From NCBI GenBank assembly GCA_029742005.1, contig GCA_029742005.1_4113.1: 64,000 nt of DNA. One strand, written 5' to 3'. The notes under the pieces are model-generated. The model was not told the DNA's origin. It searched no databases and saw nothing but the letters and a program-made list of their open reading frames with translations. Below, in pieces: positions 17,979-40,175 of the stretch (the first letter of the stretch is position 1; each line of letters begins with the position of its first letter). A program made the position numbers and the translations under genes. This DNA comes from a phage.

Positions 17979-18171
17979 ACAAACAGAATTGTTAATCTTT
18001 AATACAAGTAAATTCTTAAACATAACATTGTCTGATATAGATGAGGATGAAAAAGAGTTACTTAGAGCAGATTTAAGAGTTCTTTTATATATTGGAACTA
18101 ACTTCCAAGAGCAATTCGTTGAGGACTACATCGATGAACTTAAAGAATCTGTACTGAGAACATGCAAATGA
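17956..18171 (+). CDS. fam1 small protein
   Basis: ORF track; motif YIGTNFQEQF. Confidence 0.6.
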   Translation: MKILSHDKQTELLIFNTSKFLNITLSDIDEDEKELLRADLRVLLYIGTNFQEQFVEDYIDELKESVLRTCK

Positions 18172-18413: not shown

Positions 18414-18610
18414 ATGGACTGTTTTTGAAGTTATTTGCCATTAACACATCAAAACTACCAGATACGGATAAAATTATTAAGTTAAATGAAATCTACGTTC
18501 AAGCTACTCTAGGAACTAACTATCAAGAAGCCAATGTGTATAATTACATTAATACACTTAAAAGGGTAATACAATTAAAATGCACAGACAGCACATACAC
18601 AAACCCCTAG
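18368..18610 (+). CDS. fam1 small protein
   Basis: ORF track; motif TLGTNYQEAN. Confidence 0.6.
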   Translation: MQMRIITGEEYRTIINGLFLKLFAINTSKLPDTDKIIKLNEIYVQATLGTNYQEANVYNYINTLKRVIQLKCTDSTYTNP

Positions 18611-18810
18611 GAACAGCAGAATACATTGAACTAATGGCAGCAAACTTCTCATCCTTTCAGAAACTGATGCAAGAATCAAATAATGATTTAGAATATCATA
18701 TCAAAAGTTCAGATTTAAGATTGTTACTCACTCTAGGAACAGACAGTCAGTACAAATTCGTACAGGAGCATATTAGAGCACTTTTAAATGGCATCAGGAA
18801 TAAACTATGA
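18580..18810 (+). CDS. fam1 small protein
   Basis: ORF track; motif TLGTDSQYKF. Confidence 0.55.
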   Translation: MHRQHIHKPLGTAEYIELMAANFSSFQKLMQESNNDLEYHIKSSDLRLLLTLGTDSQYKFVQEHIRALLNGIRNKL

Positions 18811-19022
18811 AGGTAATATCAAACCAAGAGTACTTGGCACTATTCAGAAAAAATAGTCAAGAATTTCTGAATCTTGATACAAGAACTGATATAAGTGAAC
18901 TTGAAAAAAATCTTTTGCGTTCAGAGATGATAGTACTGACACTCTTAGGAACACAGCACCAAGAGAGAACTGTTAATTCACACATAGGGATTCTTATACA
19001 GATAGTACAGGAAAAGATATGA
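18807..19022 (+). CDS. fam1 small protein
   Basis: ORF track; motif LLGTQHQERT. Confidence 0.6.
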   Translation: MKVISNQEYLALFRKNSQEFLNLDTRTDISELEKNLLRSEMIVLTLLGTQHQERTVNSHIGILIQIVQEKI

Positions 19023-19240
19023 GAATCATAACACAACAAGATATTCTTAAGTTCACAAGGGTTCATGCATCTGAATTTGATGCTATATTATCAAAAAGTT
19101 ACAACAACCCTTATACAGAAGATGTACACTACAGTGAATTATGGGTGTATATACTTTTAGGTACAGATCATCAAGAGCAAGCAGTACAGAAGTATTTGTT
19201 AGCGTTAAGTACTGCTACTGCTAATGGAGTATGTGTTTAA
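19019..19240 (+). CDS. fam1 small protein
   Basis: ORF track; motif LLGTDHQEQA. Confidence 0.6.
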   Translation: MRIITQQDILKFTRVHASEFDAILSKSYNNPYTEDVHYSELWVYILLGTDHQEQAVQKYLLALSTATANGVCV

Positions 19241-19241
19241 T

Positions 19242-19484
19242 ATGAAAGTACTGACAGAATTAGAAATGTATCATAGATTTAATAAGTACTATCATTTACT
19301 TAAACCTATACAGAGGATTAAGTGTCCCTTTGTAGTGAAACAGGTATTAATTTATGAGCATAAGTTATTTGTATCATTAGGTACGAATGAACAAGAGTAT
19401 TATTTGAAGTTGTACTTAATTACTTTAATTGAATTGATTAATTACAAAACTCAGAAAGCGAAGAAATCTAAAAATGAAAACTAA
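19242..19484 (+). CDS. fam1 small protein
   Basis: track frame 19224..19484; start moved to ATG 19242 behind RBS GGAG; motif SLGTNEQEYY. Confidence 0.6.
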   Translation: MKVLTELEMYHRFNKYYHLLKPIQRIKCPFVVKQVLIYEHKLFVSLGTNEQEYYLKLYLITLIELINYKTQKAKKSKNEN

Positions 19485-19815
19485 AATTCAACTCAGGGTA
19501 TACATATCGTATGAAAATATATACGTTAAAAGTAGTCTATGTAAAGATGTAATGGACTACAAAGGTAAACCATTCACAGTTACTTACAGTTTAACAGGAG
19601 GTTTATATATCTCTTTTGCTAATTACGAAAATAATATGTACGAACACATTGACATTGAAGATTTAAGTACTTTATCACCAGAGGAATACTTCCAGGAATC
19701 ATTAGTATGGGATTTAGAGTTCCCTATGCCATTAGTACATAAGATGATAGTACTAATGAAAGAATCTAAACAGGAGCCTAATAGTGCTTATGAAGAACAC
19801 ATTATTGAGTATTAA
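19474..19815 (+). CDS. fam2 protein (first member)
   Basis: ORF track; motif PEEYFQESLVWD. Confidence 0.6.
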   Translation: MKTKIQLRVYISYENIYVKSSLCKDVMDYKGKPFTVTYSLTGGLYISFANYENNMYEHIDIEDLSTLSPEEYFQESLVWDLEFPMPLVHKMIVLMKESKQEPNSAYEEHIIEY

Positions 19816-19827
19816 GAGTACTGATAT

Positions 19828-20043
19828 ATGAAAAGATTATCATACAAAGATTACAGTAAACTTATCAGTACTTTACAACCAGAAATTAGAAGAATTAATT
19901 ATCTTCCTATATCTAACGAAGAACGTGTAGTACTGAAAAATGAGTTAATCTTAAAACGCACAGTAGGTACTAACTATCAAGATAATAGTGTTCGCGATTT
20001 AATTAGAGGGTTAATGATCACAATAAAGGCCAAGTGCTATTGA
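19828..20043 (+). CDS. fam1 small protein
   Basis: ORF track; motif TVGTNYQDNS. Confidence 0.6.
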   Translation: MKRLSYKDYSKLISTLQPEIRRINYLPISNEERVVLKNELILKRTVGTNYQDNSVRDLIRGLMITIKAKCY

Positions 20044-20107
20044 CAGTACTTGACGGAGCTTTTCATTACTGATATAGTGCATCAACGTTAATCATAGGGT
20101 ACAGATT

Positions 20108-20353
20108 ATGTTAAAATTTTTAAATTTCCTTATCGTCTTGTGTATTGTTCTTGGAATTGCACCGTTTGTATTAGCGTATCTGGATTCAGATGAAATGCAG
20201 AAGATGAATTGCACAAAGACAGGACAGAGTAGAGAAGAGACGGTTATGATGCCTGTAACGGTTATTGTGAATAACATACCAATTACGAACATGATTCCTA
20301 CCCTAACGACAACGTACCAGTACTCTTGTGCTGACGGAGAGAGGTGGAGATGA
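20108..20353 (+). CDS. putative small membrane protein
   Basis: ORF track; hydrophobic N-terminal helix FLNFLIVLCIVLGIAPFVLAYL; promoter-like TTGACA about 60 nt upstream. Confidence 0.45.
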   Translation: MLKFLNFLIVLCIVLGIAPFVLAYLDSDEMQKMNCTKTGQSREETVMMPVTVIVNNIPITNMIPTLTTTYQYSCADGERWR

Positions 20354-20661
20354 AATTTAATATAGCAAAAACATCGAGTATATGTATTTTTGGTTATTCC
20401 TATGAATTGGGTGATATTGACATTCTATTGTACAAAACGAATGGTGTTATGCATTTCAAGTACCAGGATGAAGAGGCAGACAATTATCTTTTACCTAATT
20501 TAGTACAAATGCAGGAAGAGGAATTATTCCAGTACAGCTTAATATACGACATTGATATTTGCACGATGCCAGTATTAATTAGTATTCAAAAAGTGATGCT
20601 CGATATGTATGATAAGCTAATACAAGGTATGTCAGGGAGGATCATTGAAATCGATATATAA
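20350..20661 (+). CDS. fam2 protein
   Basis: track frame 20344..20661 (GTG); start moved to ATG 20350 behind RBS GGTGGAG; motif EEELFQYSLIYD. Confidence 0.6.
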   Translation: MKFNIAKTSSICIFGYSYELGDIDILLYKTNGVMHFKYQDEEADNYLLPNLVQMQEEELFQYSLIYDIDICTMPVLISIQKVMLDMYDKLIQGMSGRIIEIDI

Positions 20662-20857
20662 GAATTTACCTAATGAATATTTGTTGAAGTACAAAGAGTT
20701 TATTAAAGATGTATATGTAGATCCTTTTAATATCAAATTTGCAGAGTTCGAAGTATCATTTTATCTAGGGACAATAGTACAGGACCAATACGTTGATAAT
20801 CTAATAAGGTGTTTGAAAAAGGAGATACAATGCAGACCCAAATGTACAAAAAAATAA
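20645..20857 (+). CDS. fam1-like small protein (TTG start per track)
   Basis: ORF track with non-ATG start; motif YLGTIVQDQY. Confidence 0.45.
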   Translation: MKSIYKNLPNEYLLKYKEFIKDVYVDPFNIKFAEFEVSFYLGTIVQDQYVDNLIRCLKKEIQCRPKCTKK

Positions 20858-21093
20858 ACTGTTATTTGTATGCATCAAAGTACAGGGATTTTTGTTTACG
20901 AGGGGGAGAGGAAGATTTTGCTCTGAGATTATCGGAATTTAATATGTTATTTTATCTTGGTACATCAGTACAAGAAGAAATGGTACAGAAATTTATCAAT
21001 CACCTTGTACAAAAAATTAATATGCAAATTTTGATGCTTGAGTTACAGAATGAGATAAACAAATATGAACCCAACAATAGTACAGGATCTTAA
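20830..21093 (+). CDS. fam1-like small protein
   Basis: track frame 20809..21093; start moved to ATG 20830 behind RBS AAGGAGA; motif YLGTSVQEEM. Confidence 0.5.
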   Translation: MQTQMYKKINCYLYASKYRDFCLRGGEEDFALRLSEFNMLFYLGTSVQEEMVQKFINHLVQKINMQILMLELQNEINKYEPNNSTGS

Positions 21094-22348: not shown

Positions 22349-22655
22349 AATGCTTAATACAGTATCAGGGATATATGTAGAATTAGAATCCGATTATTCA
22401 GATGGATGGAATTTTATTAAACGACACGATAGAAATACATGGTACATGGCACATTTGGATAATGACGTAATAATAGATAATTTTGTCGATTTTAATACAT
22501 TATCAGAAGAAGAATTTTTCCAAATGCAATTTGTGCTTGATACAAATGGATTTGATTTGCTATTATTAAGGAATATTCAGAAAGCGGTTAATGAATTCAT
22601 AATCCAAAATAATTCAGGTAAAATGGGGATGTTCCATGATCTGGAAGTACAATGA
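22338..22655 (+). CDS. fam2 protein
   Basis: ORF track; motif EEEFFQMQFVLD. Confidence 0.6.
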   Translation: MKYKMLNTVSGIYVELESDYSDGWNFIKRHDRNTWYMAHLDNDVIIDNFVDFNTLSEEEFFQMQFVLDTNGFDLLLLRNIQKAVNEFIIQNNSGKMGMFHDLEVQ

Positions 22656-23193
22656 AATTCAGTACACCTACGCTAATGCAATCCTTATGGGACAAAAGTT
22701 AGCTTGTATTGTTGCAGCCTTATATAATGCACAGAAAGATTACAAGCGTCATATCCACAAATGTATTGGTATTATTCCATCGAAGTACAATACATATATT
22801 GCGTGCACGAGTCATTTTGATAAACGATTCAATACACCTGATACCCCAAATGCCAGTAGTGTTATTGGTCTTTTGGATTTCGCACCTGGTGCTGTTATTG
22901 GAAAGAATGATTTAGAGTACACATGGTATAATAAAAATGCCCCGTTAGTAATGGGAAAATATGATACAGAAACGAACAAAACAATAGAGTACAATACATA
23001 TAAATCAGAGGAAGAATTTTTCCAAGGTTCATTGCTTGTACCAGTGCGTTTGTTGTTTTATAATGTCCTTATTAGTACAGTACACAATAGTCCATTACAC
23101 AAGAATCACAAAATTAATTTCAATTTTTGTGCTTATGCGATTGATGGTGTGTATGAGTGTTTAATGGAGGTATTGAGTTATGAAGCTGAATAA
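22636..23193 (+). CDS. fam2 protein
   Basis: ORF track; RBS GGGGA; motif EEEFFQGSLLVP. Confidence 0.6.
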   Translation: MIWKYNEIQYTYANAILMGQKLACIVAALYNAQKDYKRHIHKCIGIIPSKYNTYIACTSHFDKRFNTPDTPNASSVIGLLDFAPGAVIGKNDLEYTWYNKNAPLVMGKYDTETNKTIEYNTYKSEEEFFQGSLLVPVRLLFYNVLISTVHNSPLHKNHKINFNFCAYAIDGVYECLMEVLSYEAE

Positions 23194-23521
23194 TACATTT
23201 GATATTAATAAGTTAAGAGAATGGTTTTATAGTATTGAAATTGAAGCCATCCCGTATCATAGATATGAACAATATAATTTAACCAGTATTGATATCCGTG
23301 AGTTGTACGCGTATTATCAAAGTGCATTAGAGATGCATAAGTTATTTTTGAGTACAGATTTTGTTATAAATTACAATTTTGAGGAATTTAATAATTATAA
23401 TTTAGTACAGAAATATGTAGTAGCAAAGTACATGTACCTTCAAGGAATTACAAGTAATTTGGAATTCAATACAGTCCTGGCTTTAGTTGAGGTAATTTTA
23501 TGCAGTACATGTATGATTTAG
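23180..23521 (+). CDS. hypothetical protein (possible divergent fam2)
   Basis: ORF track; motif not clear. Confidence 0.5.
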   Translation: MKLNNTFDINKLREWFYSIEIEAIPYHRYEQYNLTSIDIRELYAYYQSALEMHKLFLSTDFVINYNFEEFNNYNLVQKYVVAKYMYLQGITSNLEFNTVLALVEVILCSTCMI

Positions 23522-23895
23522 AGTTTAGTTTAGATGCTGCCTTTAAATTTGTTCACAAGATAGAAACAATATACAGTACATTATGTGCAATACAATCAGT
23601 ATCATCTGAGTTTGATGTTGGTGAAAAATATCAGGTATGGAATAATACATTTCTAAACAAAGAACGTTGCTCTACGGGGTTTAATATTTTAACATTTAAT
23701 CCCAGCAATTGTTACCCAGAGAAGCATGAACGTTATCCGAATGACGACATGTGGTTTGATTACACAAAAGATGGTGATATGTCATCCCTTGTAGTTCCTG
23801 ATGATTTTAATGCCGAAGATTTAACGGAAGAGTGGTGGTTTCAACAGAATTTAGTTCACGATGATATTGATTTATTTTTTTTATGTAGTATTTAA
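23500..23895 (+). CDS. fam2 protein
   Basis: ORF track; RBS GAGG; motif EEWWFQQNLVHDD. Confidence 0.6.
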   Translation: MQYMYDLEFSLDAAFKFVHKIETIYSTLCAIQSVSSEFDVGEKYQVWNNTFLNKERCSTGFNILTFNPSNCYPEKHERYPNDDMWFDYTKDGDMSSLVVPDDFNAEDLTEEWWFQQNLVHDDIDLFFLCSI

Positions 23896-24089
23896 AATGC
23901 TTTATCACAACAATATATTAAAAGATAGTGTGTTTTTTTCATGTCTATATATTGATGATTTGTACAATGAAATCCAAATCAACATTCCCAGCACGCCTGT
24001 ATCGTAAGATATGGGCTTTTTTCGTTTTGGTATTGACAAAGAAGTGCAAAGCTGTTATCATGTGTAATCATTTTAAAGGAGAACATATA

Positions 24090-24602
24090 GTGAGTTTCAT
24101 AATCCCAAGTACATACGAAGATGCATCAAGTGCAGTTCATAAGATTCATTATATTTTTAATTTAATTATTAGATCTGCAAAAATTAAAATGTATGCACCT
24201 CTTGTGGAATACGATAAAAATGAGGAAATTTTTGTTAGCACAGACCAAATTATTTTTCCATATTTCAATGAAGATAGATTGTGGTTCATGCATTTAGCTG
24301 CATTACAAAAATATAAAATGTCAATTCGTAATAATTTGGATATACCGTTATATCATCCTGATATTGGAGAGGATGAATATTTTCAGTACAGTACAGTACA
24401 CCGCCATGAAGATATCTTTGTTGCTATGCTTATTGCTAAATTGAATACCGTTGATTTGGAGCAGTACAAATACAATAATAAATCATGTAAGATCATAATC
24501 CCTGCATTCATAGCTCTTTATGATTATGTGGTGCATAACAAAAAAGATGATACATATGCTTTCAATGAAGAGTATTTGAATTTTTTTAAGGAGAACATAT
24601 GA
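24090..24602 (+). CDS. fam2 protein (GTG start)
   Basis: track ORF 23928..24602 runs through an internal TTGACA promoter; start placed at GTG 24090 behind RBS AAAGGAG; motif EDEYFQYSTVH. Confidence 0.5.
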   Translation: MSFIIPSTYEDASSAVHKIHYIFNLIIRSAKIKMYAPLVEYDKNEEIFVSTDQIIFPYFNEDRLWFMHLAALQKYKMSIRNNLDIPLYHPDIGEDEYFQYSTVHRHEDIFVAMLIAKLNTVDLEQYKYNNKSCKIIIPAFIALYDYVVHNKKDDTYAFNEEYLNFFKENI

Positions 24603-25946: not shown

Positions 25947-26465
25947 ATGCATCAACACAAGCATCATTCATATGATTTTGCAATTAACATTATGAAGTTC
26001 ATTCGAGCGTTGGAGGATGGGAAGCTTAGTCATAAGTACACCAAAGTGGGTGACAATTGGTTCAGAAATGATGATGATGAGTTCAGAAGTCATAAGATTG
26101 TTTACAGCAATAATTACAGTGCCAATTACCTACAAGATGTAGTGATGTGTTTTGAATACGTGTTACAGTTCAGGGGTTCCATCAGTCCTGAGCTAAGAGA
26201 ACACATGTACATTCGATACCTACCAATGCTTAAGGATGAGAAATCAATATTCAATTCAGTACACCACAGAGTACGAGAGAGAACATTCAGAGATATTTTG
26301 GAAGATGAAGCTGCCTATTTTCAGCAATCATTGATTGATGCTCCTGATGTGTTACAGATGCAGAATTTGTATAATGTATTAGATGCGAACATCGATACGG
26401 ATATCTTTTTTTCCTTAAGTGATTATGAAACATTTTTGGAAGATTTAAAGGAAATAGGATTATGA
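25947..26465 (+). CDS. fam2 protein
   Basis: ORF track; RBS GAGGT; motif DEAAYFQQSLID. Confidence 0.6.
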   Translation: MHQHKHHSYDFAINIMKFIRALEDGKLSHKYTKVGDNWFRNDDDEFRSHKIVYSNNYSANYLQDVVMCFEYVLQFRGSISPELREHMYIRYLPMLKDEKSIFNSVHHRVRERTFRDILEDEAAYFQQSLIDAPDVLQMQNLYNVLDANIDTDIFFSLSDYETFLEDLKEIGL

Positions 26466-26806
26466 GTAGATTTTCAGTTTATATAGTAAACGTCAGTAAA
26501 GATGGTAGTTTAATTGAATTTGATGTAGTTGATAACAATGATAATTCATATGGTATTAAGGTACAGGACAATGATGTACAGTTCAGTACAAGGACAAATT
26601 TTGAGAATCCAGTCCAAGTTCCGAATTTCATAGAAGATGAAGCTGCACGATTCCAATACGAAACGGCCTTTGATAATTTAGCGATGCATATTATTATGCA
26701 AGAAAGTTTAGTTCAATTGCTTCAGGTATTCAGACAAAATATATATGTACATGAAGTGTCGATTAATGGCATTCAAAGTTCCGTTTTGTTCGGTACAAAT
26801 ATGTAA
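26462..26806 (+). CDS. fam2 protein
   Basis: ORF track; motif DEAARFQYETAFD. Confidence 0.55.
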   Translation: MSRFSVYIVNVSKDGSLIEFDVVDNNDNSYGIKVQDNDVQFSTRTNFENPVQVPNFIEDEAARFQYETAFDNLAMHIIMQESLVQLLQVFRQNIYVHEVSINGIQSSVLFGTNM

Positions 26807-28147: not shown

Positions 28148-28525
28148 ATGGAAATAAAATATAATGAATTTTGTGCAAGGACATGGATGTACACTGGTGA
28201 GTTAGTTACGCACTCTAACTTATACAAGGGTGATTTAAACTACGCTAGGGACAAGATTTTAAAGTACTGGAATGCTGACTTTTATTTGATGGATTTTAGT
28301 ACTGGGTTTAGGGGTAAAGCAACCGAGATGTTGGACTATACAGTACTTGATGATGCTGCACTGTTTCAGGAGGCATTAGTATTTGATAAGAAGTACATCT
28401 GTACATTAGAAGAGATGATTGAATTACAGCGTAGAATTAAATGTATTCACAGGGAATGTATAGATATCTGGTGCAGTACTGGTGAAGTTGATTTTTGTAA
28501 TCATTTCAATCTAGGGGAAGTGTGA
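28148..28525 (+). CDS. fam2 protein (triplet copy 1)
   Basis: track frame 28100..28525; start moved to ATG 28148; motif DAALFQEALVFDKKYICTLEE. Confidence 0.6.
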   Translation: MEIKYNEFCARTWMYTGELVTHSNLYKGDLNYARDKILKYWNADFYLMDFSTGFRGKATEMLDYTVLDDAALFQEALVFDKKYICTLEEMIELQRRIKCIHRECIDIWCSTGEVDFCNHFNLGEV

Positions 28526-28881
28526 TGGAATTTGATTTTTTAATATCAGTACATTCTTTTAAGCACAGTTTTCAGTACTTTTGTAATTTAAACAAAGGTG
28601 ATTTAATGCACAGTGCGAATGAGTATATTCATTTTACTGATGGTAAATTCTCATTTATTGATTACAGTTCATTAGATTTTCCATACACTGATATGCCGGA
28701 CTATACATTGATGGATGCTGGTGAACTATTTCAAGCTGCATTAGTATTTGACAAGAAGTACATCTGTACATTTGAAGAAGTAATTACTATACAAAATGAA
28801 ATGAAGGTGTATGCATCGTTGAATAAACCTAATGAATGTATTAATCAAGAATACAAATTCAATATAGGAATTCCAAAATGA
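28522..28881 (+). CDS. fam2 protein (triplet copy 2)
   Basis: ORF track; motif GELFQAALVFDKKYICTFEE. Confidence 0.6.
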   Translation: MMEFDFLISVHSFKHSFQYFCNLNKGDLMHSANEYIHFTDGKFSFIDYSSLDFPYTDMPDYTLMDAGELFQAALVFDKKYICTFEEVITIQNEMKVYASLNKPNECINQEYKFNIGIPK

Positions 28882-29237
28882 CATATGATTATTCTATGTA
28901 CTATTATAAGTTACCTAAAGGATGGGACTTGTGCTGTAATCTTATTAAGGGAGACTCGGAACATGAGTTGAGTTTATATATGCACTACAAAGATTCTTGT
29001 TTTAAATTTATTCATGTATTACATGATGGCTATGACTATGAATCTGAGAGTCTTATAGATTATACAGTACTGGACGATGGTGAACTATTTCAGGAAGCAT
29101 TAGTGTTTGATAAGAATAAGTACTCCTGTACATTTGAAGAAATGGTTTCTTTGCAAAATGAAATGAAGAGATTTGAAAAAGAAAACGTATTTAATCCATC
29201 CCCATCAAGAACGAATAATTATTATTTCAATATATGA
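28878..29237 (+). CDS. fam2 protein (triplet copy 3)
   Basis: ORF track; motif GELFQEALVFDKNKYSCTFEE. Confidence 0.6.
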   Translation: MTYDYSMYYYKLPKGWDLCCNLIKGDSEHELSLYMHYKDSCFKFIHVLHDGYDYESESLIDYTVLDDGELFQEALVFDKNKYSCTFEEMVSLQNEMKRFEKENVFNPSPSRTNNYYFNI

Positions 29238-29246
29238 GATTATAAA

Positions 29247-29741
29247 ATGACATTACAGAGTTCATTGGAAAAAGCAAAGAAGATTCATGAGTACATGAAT
29301 ATGGCAAAAGAAGGTTCAGTTTACGGTGTTTTCAAAGACACAAGTACTCAATATTATGTGCCAGATAACCTCCTTTATAATGACTGCTCAGATACAGAAA
29401 CGTGCGTACTGGATACAGAAACGTGCATACTAGATACCGACCCTAATGATTATGAATGTTTCATTGATATGCATAATGAGTACATGGTCTATATTAATGA
29501 TGCAGATATTACCATATACAGTACTGACTGCGATTCCGATGACATTATAATTCCGAGTGAAGTACTAGAAGGTCAGTGGGATAGTGAAGAGTATTACTTC
29601 CAACAAAGTACTGTTTACGATGATGAAGTACTTGAAGTATTAGTTATTATGTGGTACTTTAAAAGTATTGGTTCTGGGAACTTCTATTTCGATTACAGAT
29701 ACGTAACGAAAACTGTAGATAACGGTATTAACAGGGGTTGA
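29247..29741 (+). CDS. fam2 protein (MSLxxALE subgroup)
   Basis: ORF track; motif SEEYYFQQSTVYDDEVLEVLVIMWYFKS. Confidence 0.65.
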   Translation: MTLQSSLEKAKKIHEYMNMAKEGSVYGVFKDTSTQYYVPDNLLYNDCSDTETCVLDTETCILDTDPNDYECFIDMHNEYMVYINDADITIYSTDCDSDDIIIPSEVLEGQWDSEEYYFQQSTVYDDEVLEVLVIMWYFKSIGSGNFYFDYRYVTKTVDNGINRG

Positions 29742-29742
29742 A

Positions 29743-30213
29743 ATGAGTTTAGAAAGAGCATTAGAGATTGCGAAGTTAATTGATTTATGCAGCAAAGAAA
29801 TTGTATCAAATTGTCTCAATGGATATCTATTCAAGGAAGGTAAATCATATTGTCGAATGATATACGATGACAGTAGTGAATATATCCATATGTATGAAGA
29901 AAACTTAGATGATTCTGACATAGTACTCACAGGATGTGATGTTAATTTGGAAGATAATTACATGTACTTCTGCCGTGATGCTGATATTTTAATCCAAGAT
30001 TCATTAATTCAAACAGGTGCACCAGAGGTATATCTTCCGTATTCAGTACTGGATAATAACTGGGGTAGTGAAGATTACTATTTCCAGCAGAGTACTATAT
30101 ATAATGAAGATATACTTGACAAACTTGTTATTTCGTGGTACTTTCATAACACGGATTATAGTAGCTTCTACATAGACTTGGATCTACTAAGAGTACTTAA
30201 AGAGGATATATGA
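29743..30213 (+). CDS. fam2 protein (MSLxxALE subgroup)
   Basis: ORF track; motif SEDYYFQQSTIYNEDILDKLVISWYF. Confidence 0.65.
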   Translation: MSLERALEIAKLIDLCSKEIVSNCLNGYLFKEGKSYCRMIYDDSSEYIHMYEENLDDSDIVLTGCDVNLEDNYMYFCRDADILIQDSLIQTGAPEVYLPYSVLDNNWGSEDYYFQQSTIYNEDILDKLVISWYFHNTDYSSFYIDLDLLRVLKEDI

Positions 30214-30650
30214 GTTTAGAAAGAGCACTAGAACTAGCCAACAAAATACATCAGTACTACGATAAAATAAAAAGTGGGTTCTATGGTGATAAAGTACATG
30301 CATATGGGAATGAATATTACCTCACAGGAGTAAAGAGATACTCTAATGATATTTTACTTATGGGTCATGATAAAGACTATACTATACAGTACTCTTCATG
30401 TAGTCAATATACTAGTTTTATGGTATATATTCCTGGTACTAAGATTACTTTTGACACATCAAATACACCTGTTGACTTTGAAGTGTTGGAAGGACCGTGG
30501 GGTACTGAAGAATATTACTTCCAACAGAGTCTCATTTTTAACCAAGAAATGCTTGATTCCTTGGTTGTGTTGTGGTACTTTAAGGAATTGAATTTTGAAC
30601 CATTCTTTCTTGACTGGGGATCATGTGAGTATTTAATTTCAGGGGAATAA
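30210..30650 (+). CDS. fam2 protein (MSLxxALE subgroup)
   Basis: ORF track; motif TEEYYFQQSLIFNQEMLDSLVVLWYF. Confidence 0.65.
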   Translation: MSLERALELANKIHQYYDKIKSGFYGDKVHAYGNEYYLTGVKRYSNDILLMGHDKDYTIQYSSCSQYTSFMVYIPGTKITFDTSNTPVDFEVLEGPWGTEEYYFQQSLIFNQEMLDSLVVLWYFKELNFEPFFLDWGSCEYLISGE

Positions 30651-30652
30651 TA

Positions 30653-31141
30653 ATGTCATTACAAAGTGCATTGAAAGAAGCAAAGAAAATTCATGAGTTC
30701 ATGATTATGGTACAGGAAGGTTCAGTACCAGGTGTATACAAAACATCAGATACGGAATTCTTCGTTAAGGATAGAGATGATTATGACGATTCAGAGGTAT
30801 GTGCAGAAACATTAGTACTGCACACTGATACTGGTGACAGTGATAACTGTGAATATCATATGTACAATCAGTACATTAGTTATTGCCGTAATGAAGATAT
30901 TACCATCTACAACACAGATAGTGATGCTGATGACACTATCATTCCTTATTCAGTACTGGAAGGTCCGTGGGATAGTGAAGAATATTACTTCCAGAATAGT
31001 ACTATCTACAATGAAGAAGAACTGGATGTTATTGTGATTATGTGGTATTTCAAAAGTATTGACTCCAGTAGTTTCTATTTTGATTATGAATATGTAGAGA
31101 ATACAGTAGGAGAAGGTAATGTCATTACAAAGTGCTCTTGA
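30653..31141 (+). CDS. fam2 protein (MSLxxALE subgroup)
   Basis: ORF track; motif SEEYYFQNSTIYNEEELDVIVIMWYF. Confidence 0.65.
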   Translation: MSLQSALKEAKKIHEFMIMVQEGSVPGVYKTSDTEFFVKDRDDYDDSEVCAETLVLHTDTGDSDNCEYHMYNQYISYCRNEDITIYNTDSDADDTIIPYSVLEGPWDSEEYYFQNSTIYNEEELDVIVIMWYFKSIDSSSFYFDYEYVENTVGEGNVITKCS

Positions 31142-31571
31142 AAAAGCAAAAGAACTACATGGATACTTTGAAGATATAAAGGCCGGAAAGTTCAAAGAAG
31201 TGTACAAAGCCGAGAACGGTAACTACTACAAAGATGAAATGTATAATAACTCCGTTGGTGTAAGGGTTATTCTTGGGTTGAATTCCAATAGTCCTATATC
31301 GTTTTCTGAATACAATAGAGATGCAGAATTTATTAGTTATGTTGAAAATGGTAGCATTCGTTTTATTAATAGACAAAAACCATTAATTTTGAATTATGAA
31401 GTACTGGATGGACAGTGGAATAGTGAAGAGTATTACTTCCAAAACAGTACTGTATATGATGATGAAGTACTTGAAGCATTAGTTATTATGTGGTACTTCA
31501 AGAGTGTTAGCTGTCCTCGATTTTATTTGGATTTCGAAGATCTTCGTAAAGATCCAGAAGGTATAGAATGA
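31119..31571 (+). CDS. fam2 protein (MSLxxALE subgroup)
   Basis: ORF track; RBS GGAGAAGG; motif SEEYYFQNSTVYDDEVLEALVIMWYF. Confidence 0.65.
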   Translation: MSLQSALEKAKELHGYFEDIKAGKFKEVYKAENGNYYKDEMYNNSVGVRVILGLNSNSPISFSEYNRDAEFISYVENGSIRFINRQKPLILNYEVLDGQWNSEEYYFQNSTVYDDEVLEALVIMWYFKSVSCPRFYLDFEDLRKDPEGIE

Positions 31572-31882
31572 AAAACTTATTCAGTGTTCAGTACGTTCCT
31601 GGTGAAATTGGTTTATTGTATCTATTTGACCATGATAATTCATTATTACTAGTAGTGAAGAAATGCCAAGCTAGTTCGTTTGTTGAATACATTCACGATA
31701 GTGAATACATTCCTGATTTCCTAGAGTGTGATTATCACGATGAACATGAATCATTTATTTTTCAGGAATCACTCGTTTGGGATAAGTCTATTAACTTCTT
31801 TACGTTAATTGAATTACAAAAGCAGGTGAAGTATCATTGGGATTACTTAATTACACAGGATTACATTGAGATAGAAATATAA
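31568..31882 (+). CDS. fam2 protein
   Basis: ORF track; motif HESFIFQESLVWDK. Confidence 0.6.
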   Translation: MKNLFSVQYVPGEIGLLYLFDHDNSLLLVVKKCQASSFVEYIHDSEYIPDFLECDYHDEHESFIFQESLVWDKSINFFTLIELQKQVKYHWDYLITQDYIEIEI

Positions 31883-32190
31883 TGACTAAAAATGAATTTG
31901 ATTCACTTTGTACGGTTTATAATTCATTGACAGAAATACCTGACTTTATTAATTACATTTCAGCTTTAAATCAAATTATGCATAGTTTTGAACAATCGTT
32001 TGAAGAGAAATATGCAGGTAGAAAAGTTCTATGTCATATGTCAATGTACTTGGGAGATGGTGAGCCTTACACTACCAGTACTACATGTGAAATAAAAAAA
32101 TATAATATATTATTGGGCACAATAGAATTCACAGTATCCAATGGTGGTAGTTATATGTACTTTAGAGATGGAGTGGTTGAATTATTATGA
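31882..32190 (+). CDS. hypothetical protein (non-family)
   Basis: ORF track; no family motif. Confidence 0.5.
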   Translation: MTKNEFDSLCTVYNSLTEIPDFINYISALNQIMHSFEQSFEEKYAGRKVLCHMSMYLGDGEPYTTSTTCEIKKYNILLGTIEFTVSNGGSYMYFRDGVVELL

Positions 32191-32636
32191 GTTACGAAAG
32201 TGCAATCAAGAAAGCAAATGATATTCTAAAAGTTGTTCAGTTCTTCAAAGAAAATCCTGAATACTTAGCTGATGAAAACCATGATCACGATGAGAGATTG
32301 AGACGAAAAATTGTTTCTTTATTTGACACTAATGCAGATAATTATAGTCTAATTGAGTTAGCATACGATTATATTTCATTGAACCGAAACGGACATTTAG
32401 TTAATATAGAAAGACATGCGACTGAAGAATCTTTTAAAATTTCAGACATTTTATCCCTGAGTACTGAAGAAGGGTACTTCCAGGGTAGTACTGTTTATGA
32501 ACAAGGAACGCTTGACAATCTATGCACATTCAGTGTAATATATCAGAAATCAGTACTGGATGTATTTTATCTTGACACTGCTGAACTGGATACACTAATC
32601 AATTTTGTTACTACTGAAGAGGCCACATTCGAGTGA
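32187..32636 (+). CDS. fam2 protein
   Basis: ORF track; motif TEEGYFQGSTVYEQ. Confidence 0.6.
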   Translation: MSYESAIKKANDILKVVQFFKENPEYLADENHDHDERLRRKIVSLFDTNADNYSLIELAYDYISLNRNGHLVNIERHATEESFKISDILSLSTEEGYFQGSTVYEQGTLDNLCTFSVIYQKSVLDVFYLDTAELDTLINFVTTEEATFE

Positions 32637-33169
32637 TGAAAGTTAACATCAATGACTTTGATGCATTACAAGATTTATCAAAAAAGATTCGTATCATCGT
32701 ACCAGTACTAAAAAAATGCAGTACTGGTTTAATTGATCCTAGTACTGTTGTTAATGAGAAGTACAATTTTCATCGTGTATTACAGGGTACAGGTGCATTT
32801 CAGAAGTGTGATGTACGTGAGAAACACGTAATTGATACATCATTGTTTTCTATTGGTGCACCTGTGTCGAATAATTCTATTTTCTTGGATAACGCAGGAA
32901 ATATTCAACAATTAACATTTAAGAAAAGGAAAAAGAACAATAACATTGGTGTGTACGCGATGAAGTGGGGGAAACCTGATTTGAAGCGTGAAATTCACAT
33001 CCCTAAGTACAATTACAATGCATTTGACGAACAGTGTTTTCAACTATCGTGTACTGACCCTGACTATGCAATCATTCAGTTCTATATGGAATTGCAGATA
33101 GCATTTAATAGTAATTTGTATATTAACTTATTGGCGATGAACATCGATGAAGTATTCAAAAACATTTAA
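32633..33169 (+). CDS. fam2-like protein
   Basis: ORF track; motif FDEQCFQLSCTDPD. Confidence 0.55.
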   Translation: MMKVNINDFDALQDLSKKIRIIVPVLKKCSTGLIDPSTVVNEKYNFHRVLQGTGAFQKCDVREKHVIDTSLFSIGAPVSNNSIFLDNAGNIQQLTFKKRKKNNNIGVYAMKWGKPDLKREIHIPKYNYNAFDEQCFQLSCTDPDYAIIQFYMELQIAFNSNLYINLLAMNIDEVFKNI

Positions 33170-33365
33170 TCGAATTGAATACATGAGAACTGTGAGTGCA
33201 GTGTGGGATATATGGTTCACTACTAAACCAAAAATGGATTACCATGACTTTAAGCTATTGTTCTTCATTGGCTCTAACAAACAGGATGTTGCAATGAAGG
33301 GTTATATTCAGCACTTACAGGAACTAATACAGAAGAGGGTTAATGAAAATAATAGACCAAGATGA
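33147..33365 (+). CDS. fam1-like small protein inside the fam2 array
   Basis: ORF track; motif FIGSNKQDVA. Confidence 0.5.
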   Translation: MKYSKTFNRIEYMRTVSAVWDIWFTTKPKMDYHDFKLLFFIGSNKQDVAMKGYIQHLQELIQKRVNENNRPR

Positions 33366-33534
33366 TATTGCTAAACTATTCAATATATATTCTACTAGAA
33401 TGATGCAAACAGACTCATATAGTACTGAATTCAAAGAGTTGAAAGTACTGATGTACTTGGGAACCCAATATCAGGAACAAGTTATTTTGGAATATATTAA
33501 TTCGTTGAAGAAGGATATCCGTTATGTACGATGA
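33343..33534 (+). CDS. fam1 small protein inside the fam2 array
   Basis: ORF track; RBS AGAGGG; motif YLGTQYQEQV. Confidence 0.55.
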   Translation: MKIIDQDDIAKLFNIYSTRMMQTDSYSTEFKELKVLMYLGTQYQEQVILEYINSLKKDIRYVR

Positions 33535-34682: not shown

Positions 34683-35045
34683 ATGAACACATTAAGTATT
34701 ACATACTATACAACTAAAAAATTAGTTACTTGTTTAATATCTTTGAAGACAAACCATGATGATATGTTTGATATGGCTGCATATGAATTAGAATTATCAG
34801 AAGATGGCTTCAAGAGCTATGAATTATATAGCTATGTCCGTGAAGATGTAATTGACACTACACTAATGCAAGAGGATGAGTTATTCCAAGAAAGTTTAGT
34901 ATGGGATAATAAGTACGATTGTAACTTTGATTTCTTATGTTTAATCCAGAAAGAAATGAAAAGAATCTTTGATAATTATCCAATCAAACGTTTCAGTACT
35001 GCACCTGAGCAATATAAAAGGATTATATTCACCTATGAAGATTGA
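34683..35045 (+). CDS. fam2 protein
   Basis: ORF track; RBS GAGGT; motif EDELFQESLVWDN. Confidence 0.6.
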   Translation: MNTLSITYYTTKKLVTCLISLKTNHDDMFDMAAYELELSEDGFKSYELYSYVREDVIDTTLMQEDELFQESLVWDNKYDCNFDFLCLIQKEMKRIFDNYPIKRFSTAPEQYKRIIFTYED

Positions 35046-35412
35046 ATTTGAAGTTATTACATATAGTATAGGTGATGGTATCCGTTGCTATGTACAAGCA
35101 AGGCATATGGTTCCTGATGATAAACTGTCACCCAAAAGCTTCTGTATCACACAAGATCTCTTAGATATCAACGGAGAGTACAAGTACATATATTATCTTA
35201 CTAAGGGTTATTGTAGTACACGTGGTTTTAATATTGTAGCTGTTTCTAGAGATGAAATTGATGATTTAACTGAGTACGGGGAAGAAGAGATGTTCCAGTA
35301 CAGTACTGTTTTTAATGAACTGGATGTGTTTCTGTTACGAAAAATACAACACATTATGCAAGAATGTTTGCATCATAAGAGAGGTATTGTATGCGACGTG
35401 AATCTGAATTAG
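35035..35412 (+). CDS. fam2 protein
   Basis: track frame 34969..35412; start moved to ATG 35035; motif EEEMFQYSTVFNE. Confidence 0.55.
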   Translation: MKIEFEVITYSIGDGIRCYVQARHMVPDDKLSPKSFCITQDLLDINGEYKYIYYLTKGYCSTRGFNIVAVSRDEIDDLTEYGEEEMFQYSTVFNELDVFLLRKIQHIMQECLHHKRGIVCDVNLN

Positions 35413-35732
35413 TTAAAGTAATGTACGCTACTCATATTAAACTACTACTTGTTAAATTTGATTATAATAAAAAACATAATGATTTCTATACTTTAATTCG
35501 TGATGAAAATACATTCTCCTTGCGATGCAACAATATACCCTTGAAGATAAATGATTTTACTTCACTTGACGAGGGGGAATTATTTCAAGAATCATTAGTT
35601 TTTAATAGTAATATAAAAATTGATATAGAAGTTATTAAAAAATACCAGATTCTATTGAACAAAATTATGAATTGTTATCCATGTGAAATAGGTGGTCATA
35701 TGCAGTTCAAATCAAAAATGTATGAATTATGA
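35391..35732 (+). CDS. fam2 protein
   Basis: ORF track; RBS GAGAGG; motif DEGELFQESLVFN. Confidence 0.6.
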   Translation: MRRESELVKVMYATHIKLLLVKFDYNKKHNDFYTLIRDENTFSLRCNNIPLKINDFTSLDEGELFQESLVFNSNIKIDIEVIKKYQILLNKIMNCYPCEIGGHMQFKSKMYEL

Positions 35733-35739
35733 GGTTTAT

Positions 35740-36276
35740 ATGTTAGATAAAAAAATGAACTCTGGAACCCAATATAATCATCTTAAGTTGGATACATTCG
35801 AATCAGCTATCAGTACAGCACAAGATATAATTGATATTATCAAGTTCATTAAAAAAGATAAGTTCAAATGTTTGAAAATACTAAATCGTTCAATGTACCG
35901 TGATAAAAATATTCATGTATCAGTACGTAGACCGAAAGATCAAGAAAGTGGGAGAGATTTCTATAACAACAGTGAGCAGTTCGAATGTGAATATGATCCA
36001 GAATTTAGAGGTGGTTTCATGTGTTACAGTATGAAGGATACCTCACACATTGAGATACGTTCATCGAAAGGTGGCATACGTACATTAGAGTTTATTGATA
36101 TAGTTTTAAATCAGGAATACTACTTTCAACTATCATTATTGTTTCCTGCATACGATTTAGGAGTTCTATTCATGTATAAGTACTTTCATGAGCACTGGAA
36201 TGAAGACTTCTATCTGGACTTAGAAGATTACCAATTAGTTTGGGAAGAAATGGTAGAACTTCGCAACCACTCTTGA
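35740..36276 (+). CDS. fam2 protein
   Basis: track frame 35692..36276; start moved to ATG 35740 behind RBS GAGG; motif NQEYYFQLSLLFP. Confidence 0.6.
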   Translation: MLDKKMNSGTQYNHLKLDTFESAISTAQDIIDIIKFIKKDKFKCLKILNRSMYRDKNIHVSVRRPKDQESGRDFYNNSEQFECEYDPEFRGGFMCYSMKDTSHIEIRSSKGGIRTLEFIDIVLNQEYYFQLSLLFPAYDLGVLFMYKYFHEHWNEDFYLDLEDYQLVWEEMVELRNHS

Positions 36277-36330
36277 CACCCACCGATTTTTTGTGATATA
36301 ATCCCTTTATATTAATTGTAAAGGGTTATA
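36273..36330 (+). promoter_or_regulatory. internal promoter (TTGACA plus extended -10 TGATATAAT) and 5' stem-loop
   Basis: TTGACA, about 18-nt spacer, TGATATAAT; hairpin CCCTTTA..TAAAGGG before the RBS of 36336. Confidence 0.55.
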
Positions 36331-36335
36331 ACACA

Positions 36336-36812
36336 ATGTCCAAAGACCTATCATTTAGCAATGCACAAAAAATAGCAAAAGACATTATCAGGGTTTATAA
36401 ATTCCTTGCGAATGTTACTGAAGATTTTTTAATTGATAAAAATAAAGTTATTAAACGAAATGGATATCTTTCCTTTATGGATGGGTTACTCTATAGCTCA
36501 GATGAATCAACTTGTAGTATTAGAGTGCTTGATGAAGTACCAAGTGGTGATTTTATTTCATACCATTTCCCAAGTTCAGATAATTTCAAATACTACAATC
36601 ATCTTCTTATAAATGAAGCATTTGATACGATTGTAATTAACACTGAAGAAGAGTTCTTCCAGTACAGTACTGTGTATCCAGAGAGGATTGTTTTCAGTTC
36701 AGTGATTTTAACAGCCCTTAAAAATGAACTAAATTCCGATAGTGATCATTTCTACTTGGACCTGAACAATGTCGATTGTATTATTGAGTACCTGGAGAAA
36801 AATGGTTTATGA
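36336..36812 (+). CDS. fam2 protein
   Basis: ORF track; motif EEEFFQYSTVYPE. Confidence 0.65.
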   Translation: MSKDLSFSNAQKIAKDIIRVYKFLANVTEDFLIDKNKVIKRNGYLSFMDGLLYSSDESTCSIRVLDEVPSGDFISYHFPSSDNFKYYNHLLINEAFDTIVINTEEEFFQYSTVYPERIVFSSVILTALKNELNSDSDHFYLDLNNVDCIIEYLEKNGL

Positions 36813-37303
36813 TTACTACAGAATATGATTACGATGGTGTTTTAGAATTTGCAGAAAATATCTATCGCATTGCAAAGGAGTTCAGAAGTCCTAAACCTTT
36901 TGGTGGTATGTTTCAATACGATGAGTTCAGTTCATCTAAAGGAAGACTAGCATTTACTAATGGTAGAGGTAATCAAATCTACGCGGAGTACTTTGATGAT
37001 AATGACTTTCATTACAAAGCAGAATACATTTCATATTGCCCTGGGTCTGATTTGAAGATTAATATTGATACATTTAGAGAAGCAGTACAAGTTCCATATA
37101 ATGATTTAGTATTCATGTCAGAGGAAATGTACTTTCAGAAATCATTGATTAATGATACAAAAGTACTTAATGCTATGTTATTTTATGGTGCACTACTTCA
37201 TCATTACAAATACAAACAACGATTCTTTTTAGATTTAGCAGTATACTATAAATGCGTGGATTATTTGAATGCAAAATACGACAACAATTCAGTACATGAC
37301 TGA
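36809..37303 (+). CDS. fam2 protein
   Basis: ORF track; motif SEEMYFQKSLIND. Confidence 0.6.
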   Translation: MITTEYDYDGVLEFAENIYRIAKEFRSPKPFGGMFQYDEFSSSKGRLAFTNGRGNQIYAEYFDDNDFHYKAEYISYCPGSDLKINIDTFREAVQVPYNDLVFMSEEMYFQKSLINDTKVLNAMLFYGALLHHYKYKQRFFLDLAVYYKCVDYLNAKYDNNSVHD

Positions 37304-37631
37304 TGGTACTGAATACTTTGTTTCAAGATATGTAATCAACCACAACCATTATGTAACCTATATTCCAGAATACAATCAATTTTATATCCAGATTTATCAA
37401 TATAATGGAAAGATAAATGATATATATTCAGAAATAAAAATCCCTGATTATAGTACTTTATCAGAAGAGGAATTATTTCAGGAGAGCACTATAAGTACTG
37501 AAGATGTGTACGAAATAATGGAATACCAGAAGGTACTTAAACATTTTCATGAAGCAAATGATATACAAATCGATATTGTTAAACCGTGGTGTTACAATAC
37601 ATATGAGGTAAATTATGTTAGAAATGATTAA
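37269..37631 (+). CDS. fam2 protein
   Basis: ORF track (start uncertain; alternative ATG 37296); motif SEEELFQESTIS. Confidence 0.55.
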   Translation: MQNTTTIQYMTDGTEYFVSRYVINHNHYVTYIPEYNQFYIQIYQYNGKINDIYSEIKIPDYSTLSEEELFQESTISTEDVYEIMEYQKVLKHFHEANDIQIDIVKPWCYNTYEVNYVRND

Positions 37632-38028
37632 AATTATGCAACGTTGTGTTGTTGACCAACACGGGATATATGGATATCGTTTAAGTGCTCCTATTGACAA
37701 AAATAAAACAACCTATGTAAGCTATAATGCTGTACAAGGATTTGATATATTCATTAGTACTAATTATCAAATCAAACAAGCTAAAGATGTGTCTATAATG
37801 ACCCCTGATGAGTTATTTCAGTACAGCTTAGTCTTTCCTACATGTATCGATTTACAACGTCTAGGAGCGATACAGAAGGTTTTACGCGAACATAAAGTAC
37901 AACCCAATAAAGTCACACACATTCCAGAAACAATCTTCAAAACCATAGAAGTAGAAACTCCTGATTATATGTTAAGTGATGATGAGTACTACGAGAAACG
38001 CTTCCCTGGTAAAGTTTGGAGAGACTAA
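37615..38028 (+). CDS. fam2 protein
   Basis: ORF track; motif PDELFQYSLVFP. Confidence 0.6.
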   Translation: MLEMIKIMQRCVVDQHGIYGYRLSAPIDKNKTTYVSYNAVQGFDIFISTNYQIKQAKDVSIMTPDELFQYSLVFPTCIDLQRLGAIQKVLREHKVQPNKVTHIPETIFKTIEVETPDYMLSDDEYYEKRFPGKVWRD

Positions 38029-38519
38029 TGAACCGAAAGTACAGAGAAACTATGAAGTTCGCTAAGGAGTGTTTAGAAGTGTTTGAGTTCATCAATGCTC
38101 ATAAAGATTTACTCCATAGATACATTGCAATCAGTGAGACAGATGACCATAGGTACATATGTTCTCGAATTCAAGATAAGATATATAAGATTGTGTTCTC
38201 GGAAACATACACAGATACATCTAATTCACTATATGATTTTGCACGTACTGATTACGTTTCATACAAATCTTGGTCTGATAGTATTAAAATTGTGCACAAG
38301 CAAAATACATTTTATTCTTTTCTTACGGACATTTCCGAAGAAAGTTACTTTCAAAACAGTTTAATTTATACAGAAAAAGAACTCAAAATGTTATATATTA
38401 TGTCGTACTTTAAAAAGTACTGCAAATTTAATACATTATCTTTTGAGATTTCTGCAATGAAAGTATTCATTAAAAATGTAAAAGAATTAAAGAGGGCTTT
38501 TAATGTACATAGAAAATGA
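38028..38519 (+). CDS. fam2 protein
   Basis: track frame 38016..38519 (TTG); start moved to ATG 38028 behind RBS GGAGAG; motif EESYFQNSLIYT. Confidence 0.6.
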   Translation: MNRKYRETMKFAKECLEVFEFINAHKDLLHRYIAISETDDHRYICSRIQDKIYKIVFSETYTDTSNSLYDFARTDYVSYKSWSDSIKIVHKQNTFYSFLTDISEESYFQNSLIYTEKELKMLYIMSYFKKYCKFNTLSFEISAMKVFIKNVKELKRAFNVHRK

Positions 38520-40113: not shown

Positions 40114-40140
40114 AGACCCGTATGGGTCTTTTTGTGTTTA
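40114..40140 (+). terminator. rho-independent terminator
   Basis: AGACCCGTATGGGTCT hairpin then T-run. Confidence 0.7.
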
Positions 40141-40145
40141 TGGCT

Positions 40146-40175
40146 TTACAAGAGCATTCAGGTGTGTTATACTTG
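40146..40175 (+). promoter_or_regulatory. sigma70-like promoter
   Basis: TTTACA, 17-nt spacer, TATACT with upstream TG. Confidence 0.5.

Follow-up and report, generated by a model that had tools for sequence, protein, structure and literature searches.

The Phe-Gln motif that recurs along the 64,000-nucleotide stretch of phage DNA analysed here (the window) is most probably the conserved core helix of a duplicated, phage-specific α+β domain, whose resemblance to the sites of viral proteases is coincidental. That the TEV-like strings in these proteins serve as protease cleavage sites can almost certainly be dismissed. The DNA of the window belongs to a jumbo coliphage of the 121Q/PBECO4 type (Rak2-like), a giant phage of E. 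coli.

The motif has the signature EExx[YLF]-F-Q-x-S-[LT]-[VIL] and marks a family, here called family 2, of at least 39 co-oriented ORFs within 19.5–59.8 kb, 39 window ORFs being recovered at E < 1e-3. The main array (19474-47455, plus strand) contains 37 ORFs identified by iterative HMM, as well as about eight borderline ORFs with FQ at the equivalent position, and its genes overlap or abut for the most part. An outlying member with the string SEEEHFQLM was found at 59356-59802 on the plus strand (E = 7.5e-6, broad HMM). The array comprises dozens of small, divergent paralogs in tandem and in one orientation, and it is confined to one phage clade; over 25 kb of a 350-kb phage genome, some 7%, is taken up by the superfamily.

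The initial annotation had located the motif at 29247-31571. This segment does hold it, [ST]E[ED]YYFQ[QN]S being present once in each of five ORFs, but these are only the five closest paralogs of a far wider family. All five are seeds or matches of the family-2 profile with F-Q at the equivalent column, and all lie on the plus strand: 29247-29741 (164 aa; SEEYYFQQS at aa 113-121, DNA 29583-29609), 29743-30213 (156 aa; SEDYYFQQS at aa 109-117, DNA 30067-30093), 30210-30650 (146 aa; TEEYYFQQS at aa 99-107, DNA 30504-30530), 30653-31141 (162 aa; SEEYYFQNS at aa 108-116, DNA 30974-31000), and 31119-31571 (150 aa; motif DNA 31422-31448), the last of which was used for structure modelling. Every instance cited in that annotation was found in a window ORF, including EEEFFQGS (22636-23193), DEAAYFQQS (25947-26465), TEEGYFQGS (32187-32636), EESYFQNS (38028-38519), and EENYFQLS (42831-43412).

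In the window ORFs, [ED][ED]..FQ.S occurs 22 times and FQ.S 38 times, while shuffles gave expectations of 0.0 and 2.2, respectively. The recurrence, which had been described as striking, is therefore far over chance; nevertheless, its source is paralogy and not independent gain, as the 37–39 ORFs concerned are homologous products of gene duplication. Conservation was evaluated in a set of 185 sequences, 148 of them external homologues. Both F and Q are kept in 185/185, and they are the sole invariant internal columns among the 37 paralogs, for which the mean column identity is 13%. The columns of next-highest conservation are aromatic or hydrophobic, as is typical of a protein core. The family is under purifying selection (pooled pN/pS 0.32), its proteins are mostly acidic (median pI 4.8), and the F of the motif lies at a median of 50 aa before the C-terminus. 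In a natural two-unit fusion, P0001, FQ is found at residues 71 and 193 with the junction near residue 122. In a metagenomic relative, two copies have F-M where the family has F-Q, and these retain the fold signature. The absolute invariance of F, which is never Y, L or W in the 185 sequences, exceeds what is usual for a core position.

The AF2 model of ORF 31119-31571 is an α+β domain predicted with high confidence (pLDDT 90.8, pTM 0.84), comprising H3-21, seven strands between residues 28 and 91, H93-97, the motif helix H103-110, H115-129, and E135-138. A separate BFVD model of a 121Q paralog superposes on it with a TM of 0.85. According to DSSP, the motif forms the short helix H103-110, with S102 as N-cap and F107 and Q108 as the invariant residues; the block has a pLDDT of ~98 and is flanked by structured elements on both sides. 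The FQxS string is thus predicted to sit in a short helix within a confident fold and not in a loop, the point for which structure prediction had been proposed. Together with the mid-unit position of FQ in the fusion, this supports the earlier preference for a conserved structural element of a small domain over a cleavage site. Position −5 is S, T or D in 150/182 sequences and is followed by E, E, and E or another residue, with the modelled helix beginning at −4; helices commonly carry negative charge at their N-terminal end. Judged by conservation, positions −4, −1, 0, and +3 share one side of the helix, and +2 varies most of all. When the helix is drawn as an ideal wheel, Q(+1), E(−3), and E(−2) fall opposite the hydrophobic face.

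We propose that Rak2-like jumbo phages (121Q, PBECO4, RaK2, GAP32, and relatives) have amplified a phage-specific α+β domain of about 100–200 aa in tandem, to about 40 genes or more per array. The motif would be a two-turn helix, its N-end capped by S/T/D at −5 and its first turn filled by acidic residues. The aromatic residue at −1, the invariant F, S at +3, and L/T at +4 would form one face that may pack against the sheet and so bury the F. A short strand-like segment, [VIL]-aromatic-[DN], would come after the motif, and then a long C-terminal helix. The proteins are most likely made intact.

A residue with a structural role alone would not usually be expected opposite the hydrophobic face, where the invariant Q lies, so that a functional polar surface may exist here. 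It is conceivable, though unlikely, that the F-Q helix is such a surface: all paralogs would bind the same partner or ligand, of host or phage origin, by means of the invariant Q and the acidic residues at −4 to −2, while the variable remainder of each protein adds a second specificity of its own, in the manner of a set of adaptors or decoys. Neither F nor Q varies in the 185 sequences whereas the ordinary core position −1 does (Y/L/F/I/M), the wheel sets Q(+1), E(−3), and E(−2) away from the hydrophobic stripe, and the family is acidic for the most part. Nevertheless, the wheel geometry is crude because the helix has only 8 residues, the remaining top-conserved columns resemble a hydrophobic core, Q-to-M is tolerated in the two copies of the relative, and the homologues are all stand-alone proteins with neither informative fusions nor a known partner. 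A more elaborate proposition, which we consider rather improbable, is that the F-Q helix and its acidic face are a common docking or recognition element by which some 40–47 diversified early proteins all bind a single factor of the host or the phage. Such an array would serve as a combinatorial set of adaptors, or as a set of decoys that titrates a defence-associated protease or sensor of the host, on a fold without known relative. The acidity of the proteins is also a weak lead towards a DNA-mimic or anti-restriction role.

The distribution of family 2 is narrow. It has just 129 cluster representatives among 1.84 billion proteins, and the BFVD matches come solely from 121Q, SP27, RaK2, GAP32, Serratia BF, and Yersinia fHe-Yen9-04. 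Searches of Pfam, NCBIfam, and PDB sequences with family 2 gave no match, and the fold has no solved relative. The SUKH (SMI1-KNR4) immunity-protein superfamily was considered on account of viral tandem arrays of ~150-aa α+β proteins and was rejected, there being no fold similarity to solved structures and no Pfam match. The tandem, co-oriented arrays of family 2 adjoin a second array, that of family 1, and are restricted to Rak2-like jumbo phages; a metagenomic relative (L003) has 25 family-2 and 18 family-1 genes within 20 kb. In the window, the family-1 array (LGTN[YF]QE; 13562-21093, plus strand) has 27 ORFs, and further family-1 ORFs are found at 33147-33365 and 33343-33534. It had been suggested that family 1 shares the [YF]-Q dipeptide and hence perhaps a common module with family 2. 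The first part is inconsistent, as only the Q is invariant in family 1 and the residue before it is Y or F in 19/29 copies. The second finds no support: family 1 is a 71-aa four-helix all-α fold, family 2 is α+β, and hhalign gives a probability of 0.12% for their relationship. ORF 37615-38028, a candidate for a protein with both motifs, was discarded since its ISTNYQ string is a chance match (E = 1.1).

Following our preferred reading, that of a core helix in an amplified domain, family-2 proteins might act inside the cell as diversified binders in host takeover or counter-defence, with specificity provided by the variable N-terminal helix and the sheet. Their expression would probably be early, from host σ70 promoters, and their products would not be packaged into virions. 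Gene junctions overlap in 70/91 cases. TG-extended σ70-like promoters are found in 5/9 intergenic gaps, two of them preceded by a terminator hairpin, although the window-wide promoter count shows no enrichment over shuffles. All are on the plus strand: TTGACG-17-TATAGT with a TG-extended −10 at 20050-20078; TTGACA-17-TATCAT with TG at 24033-24061, after a terminator-like hairpin and T-run at 23995-24022; a perfect 12/12 match, TTGACA-18-TATAAT with TG, at 36273-36302 in the gap before ORF 36336-36812; TTTACA-17-TATACT with TG at 40145-40173, after the terminator-like hairpin GACCCGTATGGGTC and T-run at 40115-40133; and TTGACT-17-TACATT with TG at 43427-43455 in an intergenic gap. The hairpin at 23995-24022 and the promoter that follows it fall within the over-extended 5′ end of ORF 23955-24602. 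It is from these promoter-like sequences that we infer early expression of family-2 genes. The neighbourhood of the arrays includes Rnl1, PNKP, and a gp0.7-like kinase; Rnl1 and PNKP are known counter-defence genes. The 62 virion proteins listed for phAPEC6 (PMC7247149) do not include its orthologues, gp411c-gp466c; the published mass-spectrometry data cover virions only. In one 50-kb block of the phAPEC6 annotation nearly all entries are 'hypothetical protein'. A literature search for a description of the family or an Asteriusvirus transcriptome returned only generic remarks on paralogs, and no infected-cell proteome for this phage group was found in the literature.

The TEV NIa-Pro site is ENLYFQ/(S/G), with the consensus E-x-x-Y-x-Q-(S/G), and that of HRV 3C/PreScission is LEVLFQ/GP. 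It had been suggested that the motif has the architecture of such a site and that the proteins could be substrates or decoys of a Gln-specific protease, or be matured by one encoded elsewhere. On this reading, an enzyme of the TEV NIa/3C type, from another part of the phage genome or from the host, would mature or inactivate them by cutting after the Q. We regard this as very improbable. Upstream of the presumed scissile bond there is a sequence resemblance: P6 is E in 149/185 sequences, P3 is Y in 73/185, P2 is F and P1 is Q in all, and a few copies share EVLFQ with the HRV 3C site. ExxYxQ fits a minority of the family, 62/185, among which are the five ORFs of 29247-31571. Downstream the proposed architecture fails: the conserved Ser is off-register, at P2′ (163/185) and not at P1′. 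P1′ is the most variable position of the motif and is mostly bulky or charged (of 185: Y41, E32, L30, N21, Q19, M11, A8, K7, G6, S1); a small residue, G, S or A, occupies it in only 15/185, the strict ExxYxQ[GS] is found in 5/185, and Gly-Pro at P1′-P2′ in 0/185. Moreover, proteases bind substrates in extended conformation, while the motif is modelled as a helix at pLDDT ~98 inside a folded domain. F-M variants occur, and in the fusion P0001 FQ lies mid-unit and not at the junction.

A suitable enzyme was not detected either. The 20 window ORFs with a length of at least 170 aa gave no peptidase match in Pfam, in agreement with the initial annotation, which saw no chymotrypsin-like protease in the window. 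A wider search was also negative: tblastn of TEV NIa-Pro and HRV14 3C (query sequences entered by hand) against 50,697 phage records gave nothing at E ≤ 1. The annotations of Rak2-like relatives list only ClpP and a T4 gp21-like (S77) prohead protease, and in the fully annotated phage CBB the only proteases listed are ClpP and Peptidase_S77 prohead protease. We know of no Gln-specific endoprotease in E. coli. Taken together, the misfit at P1′, the helical conformation, and the lack of a NIa/3C homologue in the phage records searched and in the annotations of Rak2-like relatives speak against the substrate or decoy proposal.

The prohead protease itself was considered as well. T4 gp21-like enzymes cleave after Glu in [LI]-x-E, and family-2 proteins might be cut at the [LMI]-[ST]-E that immediately precedes the motif. 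A Peptidase_S77 prohead protease is present in the phage group, and [LI]-x-E ends at the conserved Glu −4 in 53/185 sequences. This is, however, only 29%, and the cut would fall where a structured helix is N-capped; moreover, the virion proteome of phAPEC6 lacks the orthologues, which are hence not prohead core proteins. Processing of this kind, to which we assign an extremely small probability, was rejected as a minority pattern in non-virion proteins. The idea that a nucleotide-level element recurs here, for example a signal for regulation or recombination that is translated by chance, has nothing but the recurrence itself in its favour and is practically negligible: the four F-Q codon pairs (TTT/TTC × CAA/CAG) are used about evenly, 13/10/9/7 times, and the Ser at +3 is encoded by both AGY and TCA codons, which are not interconvertible, so that codon usage rules out a DNA-level motif and selection must act on the protein.

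A majority of the genes of jumbo phages are unexplained. In the present case PHROG families labelled 'unknown function', more than 20 in number, merge into one superfamily marked by the invariant F-Q helix and placed behind σ70-like promoters, beside Rnl1 and PNKP. Large, fast-diversifying arrays of putative early genes such as this one are, in jumbo phages, leading candidates for a part in host takeover or anti-defence. A protease site of this kind would have been remarkable in a bacteriophage, yet the evidence does not bear that reading out. A practical point follows from the one third of the sequences that carry ExxYxQ: when TEV-cleavable expression tags are used, TEV could in principle cut the family-2 proteins themselves if the helix unfolds.

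With respect to known systems, the window proteins match PHROG families 9317, 12674, 13866, 15629, and others of 'unknown function' with E-values reaching 1e-60 or lower. The sequences are therefore already catalogued, but PHROGs splits them into more than 20 groups and does not record one superfamily with a common F-Q core. Likeness to the TEV NIa site resides in Glu at P6 (81%), Tyr at P3 (39%), and Phe at P2 with Gln at P1 (100%), and the five ORFs at 29247-31571 read E-E/D-Y-Y-F-Q. The differences are P1′, which is Q/N in these five ORFs and Y/E/L/N/Q across the family, with Ser at P2′; the setting, a helix in a fold and not a linker, with no NIa-type protease detected in the searches above; and the biology, a plant RNA virus polyprotein as against a dsDNA phage of E. 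coli. An E-x-L-F-Q subfamily (TDEVLFQLS, SEEELFQES) repeats the P5–P1 string of the picornavirus 3C site, but no member has its Gly-Pro (0/185), and the objections from structure and genome raised against TEV apply here too. A further likeness is to the helix N-capping box, with an S/T/D N-cap and an acidic first turn, which corresponds to S/T/D at −5 and the acidic run after it. Although it does not account for the F-Q invariance, this generic motif accounts for the acidic 'P6–P4' residues.

The 2.3-kb region at 29247-31571 is 97% identical to Escherichia phages 121Q and vB_Eco_slurp01 and 80-95% identical to some 30 further jumbo coliphages of the Asteriusvirus (Rak2-like) group, whose genomes measure roughly 350 kb; nearly all genes of the window lie on the + strand. 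Each of the motif instances quoted in the initial annotation was found in ORFs of the window, and [ST]E[ED]YYFQ[QN]S occurs once per ORF in 5/5 ORFs within 29247-31571. The motif is thus located there as claimed, but these coordinates do not bound it, since the F-Q domain family (family 2) spreads well past them. All-against-all BLAST and iterative HMM searches gave 37 homologous ORFs at 19474-47455, while a broader HMM gave 39 window ORFs with E < 1e-3, adding 59356-59802 and 26462-26806, and about eight further borderline ORFs with FQ at the equivalent place. The pattern [ED][ED]..FQ.S was observed 22 times, where shuffled sequences gave an expectation of 0.0, an excess that is due to common descent and not to independent recurrence.

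Column identity averages 13% across the 37 paralogs, in which no internal columns other than F and Q are invariant. When 1.84 billion representative proteins were searched exhaustively with HMMER, only 129 matched, all of 55-200 aa; when these were combined with word-indexed matches and the window copies, F-Q was kept in 185/185 sequences, with the consensus [STD]-E-E-x-[YLF]-F-Q-x-S-[LT]-[VIL]-[YFHW]-[DN]. All four synonymous F-Q codon pairs are in use (13/10/9/7) and Ser at +3 (F being 0) is encoded by AGY as well as TCA; therefore, the constraint acts on the protein. The sole exceptions seen come from L003, a metagenomic relative with the family-1/family-2 layout of the window (18 family-1 and 25 family-2 genes in 20 kb), in which F-M replaces F-Q in two family-2 copies, 17202-17789 (TEESFFMHSTLY) and 17850-18323 (SSEDYFMNLCLF), with profile matches still at E 1e-10 to 1e-15.

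The preference of the initial annotation for a structural element found support in the structure prediction that it had proposed. The AlphaFold2 model of ORF 31119-31571, built on the 37-paralog alignment, is confident (pLDDT 90.8, pTM 0.84) and comprises helix 3-21, seven strands between 28 and 91, helices 93-97, 103-110 and 115-129, and strand 135-138; superposition with an independent BFVD model, that of another 121Q paralog, gives a TM of 0.85. The motif, E103-S110, is modelled as a short helix N-capped by S102 (block pLDDT 98), so the acidic residues assigned to P6-P4 of a protease site would form the first helical turn, the standard place for negative charge in helix capping. Projected onto a helical wheel, -4, -1, 0 and +3 fall on the same side, the invariant Q, E(-3) and E(-2) lie on the opposite face, and variability is greatest at +2. 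The absolute invariance of F-Q may reflect either a keystone of the fold or an interaction face common to the family.

As a signature helix, the motif characterises a small domain that is confined to one clade and has been massively duplicated. Family 2 has no match in Pfam, NCBIfam or PDB sequences, its members are spread over more than 20 PHROGs, every one of unknown function, and the BFVD structural neighbours come only from 121Q, SP27, RaK2, GAP32, Serratia phage BF and Yersinia phage fHe-Yen9-04. The suggestion that family 1, the separate LGTN[YF]QE array, shares a module with family 2 is unsupported. Other small paralog groups in the window, three ORFs at 54522-55930 and the pair 2367-2711 and 8255-8578, show no kinship to either family. 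Since its contig is only 563 nt, a 103-aa member labelled Actinomadura adrarensis at NCBI almost certainly reflects contamination of that assembly with phage or E. coli.

Compared with the related phage phAPEC6, the pooled pN/pS is 0.32 and divergence is mosaic, some ORFs being 100% identical and their neighbours having dS of 0.24-0.35, which suggests recombinational exchange of array cassettes between co-circulating phages. The pattern can be seen by comparing 28525-31882 with 34683-37631, where contrasting paralogs are only a few kb apart. In the family-1 array, the apparent gap at 15716-15920 holds a copy (HMM E = 7e-19) in which a stop codon breaks the frame immediately ahead of ALLGTNYQQ; this copy is likely a pseudogene and suggests birth-and-death turnover. 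A second "gap", 20662-20829, holds the remnant FYLGTIVQDQYVDNLIRCLKKEI (E = 7e-12), which has no ORF starting at an ATG. The family-2 copy 23500-23895 stops 16 residues past F-Q (…DLFFLCSI*), while its phAPEC6 orthologue gp456c runs on for 168 aa with a C-terminal sequence that the window encodes in frame +1; the copy carries a frameshift, so either it is decaying or the sequence has an error here.

Genes of the 13.5-48 kb arrays overlap at 70/91 junctions. TG-extended sigma-70 promoters, one a perfect TTGACA-18-TATAAT, are predicted in 5/9 gaps longer than 40 nt, and terminator-like hairpins precede 2/5 of them. ORF 23955-24602, read from ATG to stop, is over-extended at its 5′ end; within it, a terminator-like hairpin occupies 23995-24022 and a strong promoter 24033-24061. 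Its orthologue in phAPEC6, gp455c, has a shorter length of 513 nt, and the real start codon probably lies close to 24090. Upstream of the array, 9941-10582 has weak protein-kinase Pfam matches (E ~1e-3) and the length of phAPEC6 gp031c, whose annotation reads T7/K11 gp0.7-like protein kinase; such kinases are a classic early means of host takeover. Downstream lie T4-type RNA ligase 1 (Rnl1, 60063-61205) and polynucleotide kinase-phosphatase (PNKP, 62302-63234), the tRNA-repair pair against PrrC anticodon nuclease, and a GIY-YIG/NUMOD3 homing-endonuclease-like ORF (63254-63961). These neighbours fit an early, host-interaction region. The family-2 proteins are aromatic-rich and for the most part acidic (median pI 4.8), and their phAPEC6 orthologues (gp411c-gp466c) are missing from the 62-protein virion proteome (PMC7247149). 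We infer that they are probably early intracellular binders in host takeover or counter-defence.

It had also been suggested that these proteins could be substrates or decoys of a Gln-specific protease. The window offers no obvious chymotrypsin-like protease, as noted initially: none of twenty window ORFs of 170 aa or more has a peptidase Pfam domain. Farther afield, TEV NIa-Pro and HRV14 3C queries gave no match in 50,697 phage records (tblastn, E <= 1). The proteases listed in published annotations of Rak2-like phages are limited to a prohead protease of the T4 gp21 type (Peptidase_S77) and a ClpP homologue, and the CBB tables hold no trypsin-like, Peptidase_C or Peptidase_M entries. From F to the C-terminus the median distance is 50 residues. 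In P0001, a naturally occurring 242-aa protein in which two short-form units are fused, FQ stands at 71 and 193 and the junction near 122, so a cut after Q would break each domain and not part the two units. P0001 comes from another phage genome and fuses two adjacent genes, whose counterparts in the window (28148-28525 and 28525-28881) are separate ORFs with overlapping stop and start. With the motif modelled as a helix, FQ mid-unit, no NIa/3C match in those phage records and a misfit at P1′, the substrate or decoy idea is unsupported.

The resemblance itself is partial. Family 2 has E at P6 in 149/185 and Y at P3 in 73/185 sequences, and ExxYxQ fits 62/185. However, P1′ is its most variable position (Y41, E32, L30, N21, Q19, M11, A8, K7, G6, S1); only 5/185 fit the TEV pattern ExxYxQ[GS], and the G-P that follows Q in 3C-type sites occurs in 0/185. 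The conserved Ser (163/185) stands at P2′, one register away from the Ser of TEV. The family-2 motif resembles the TEV and 3C sites only by coincidence.
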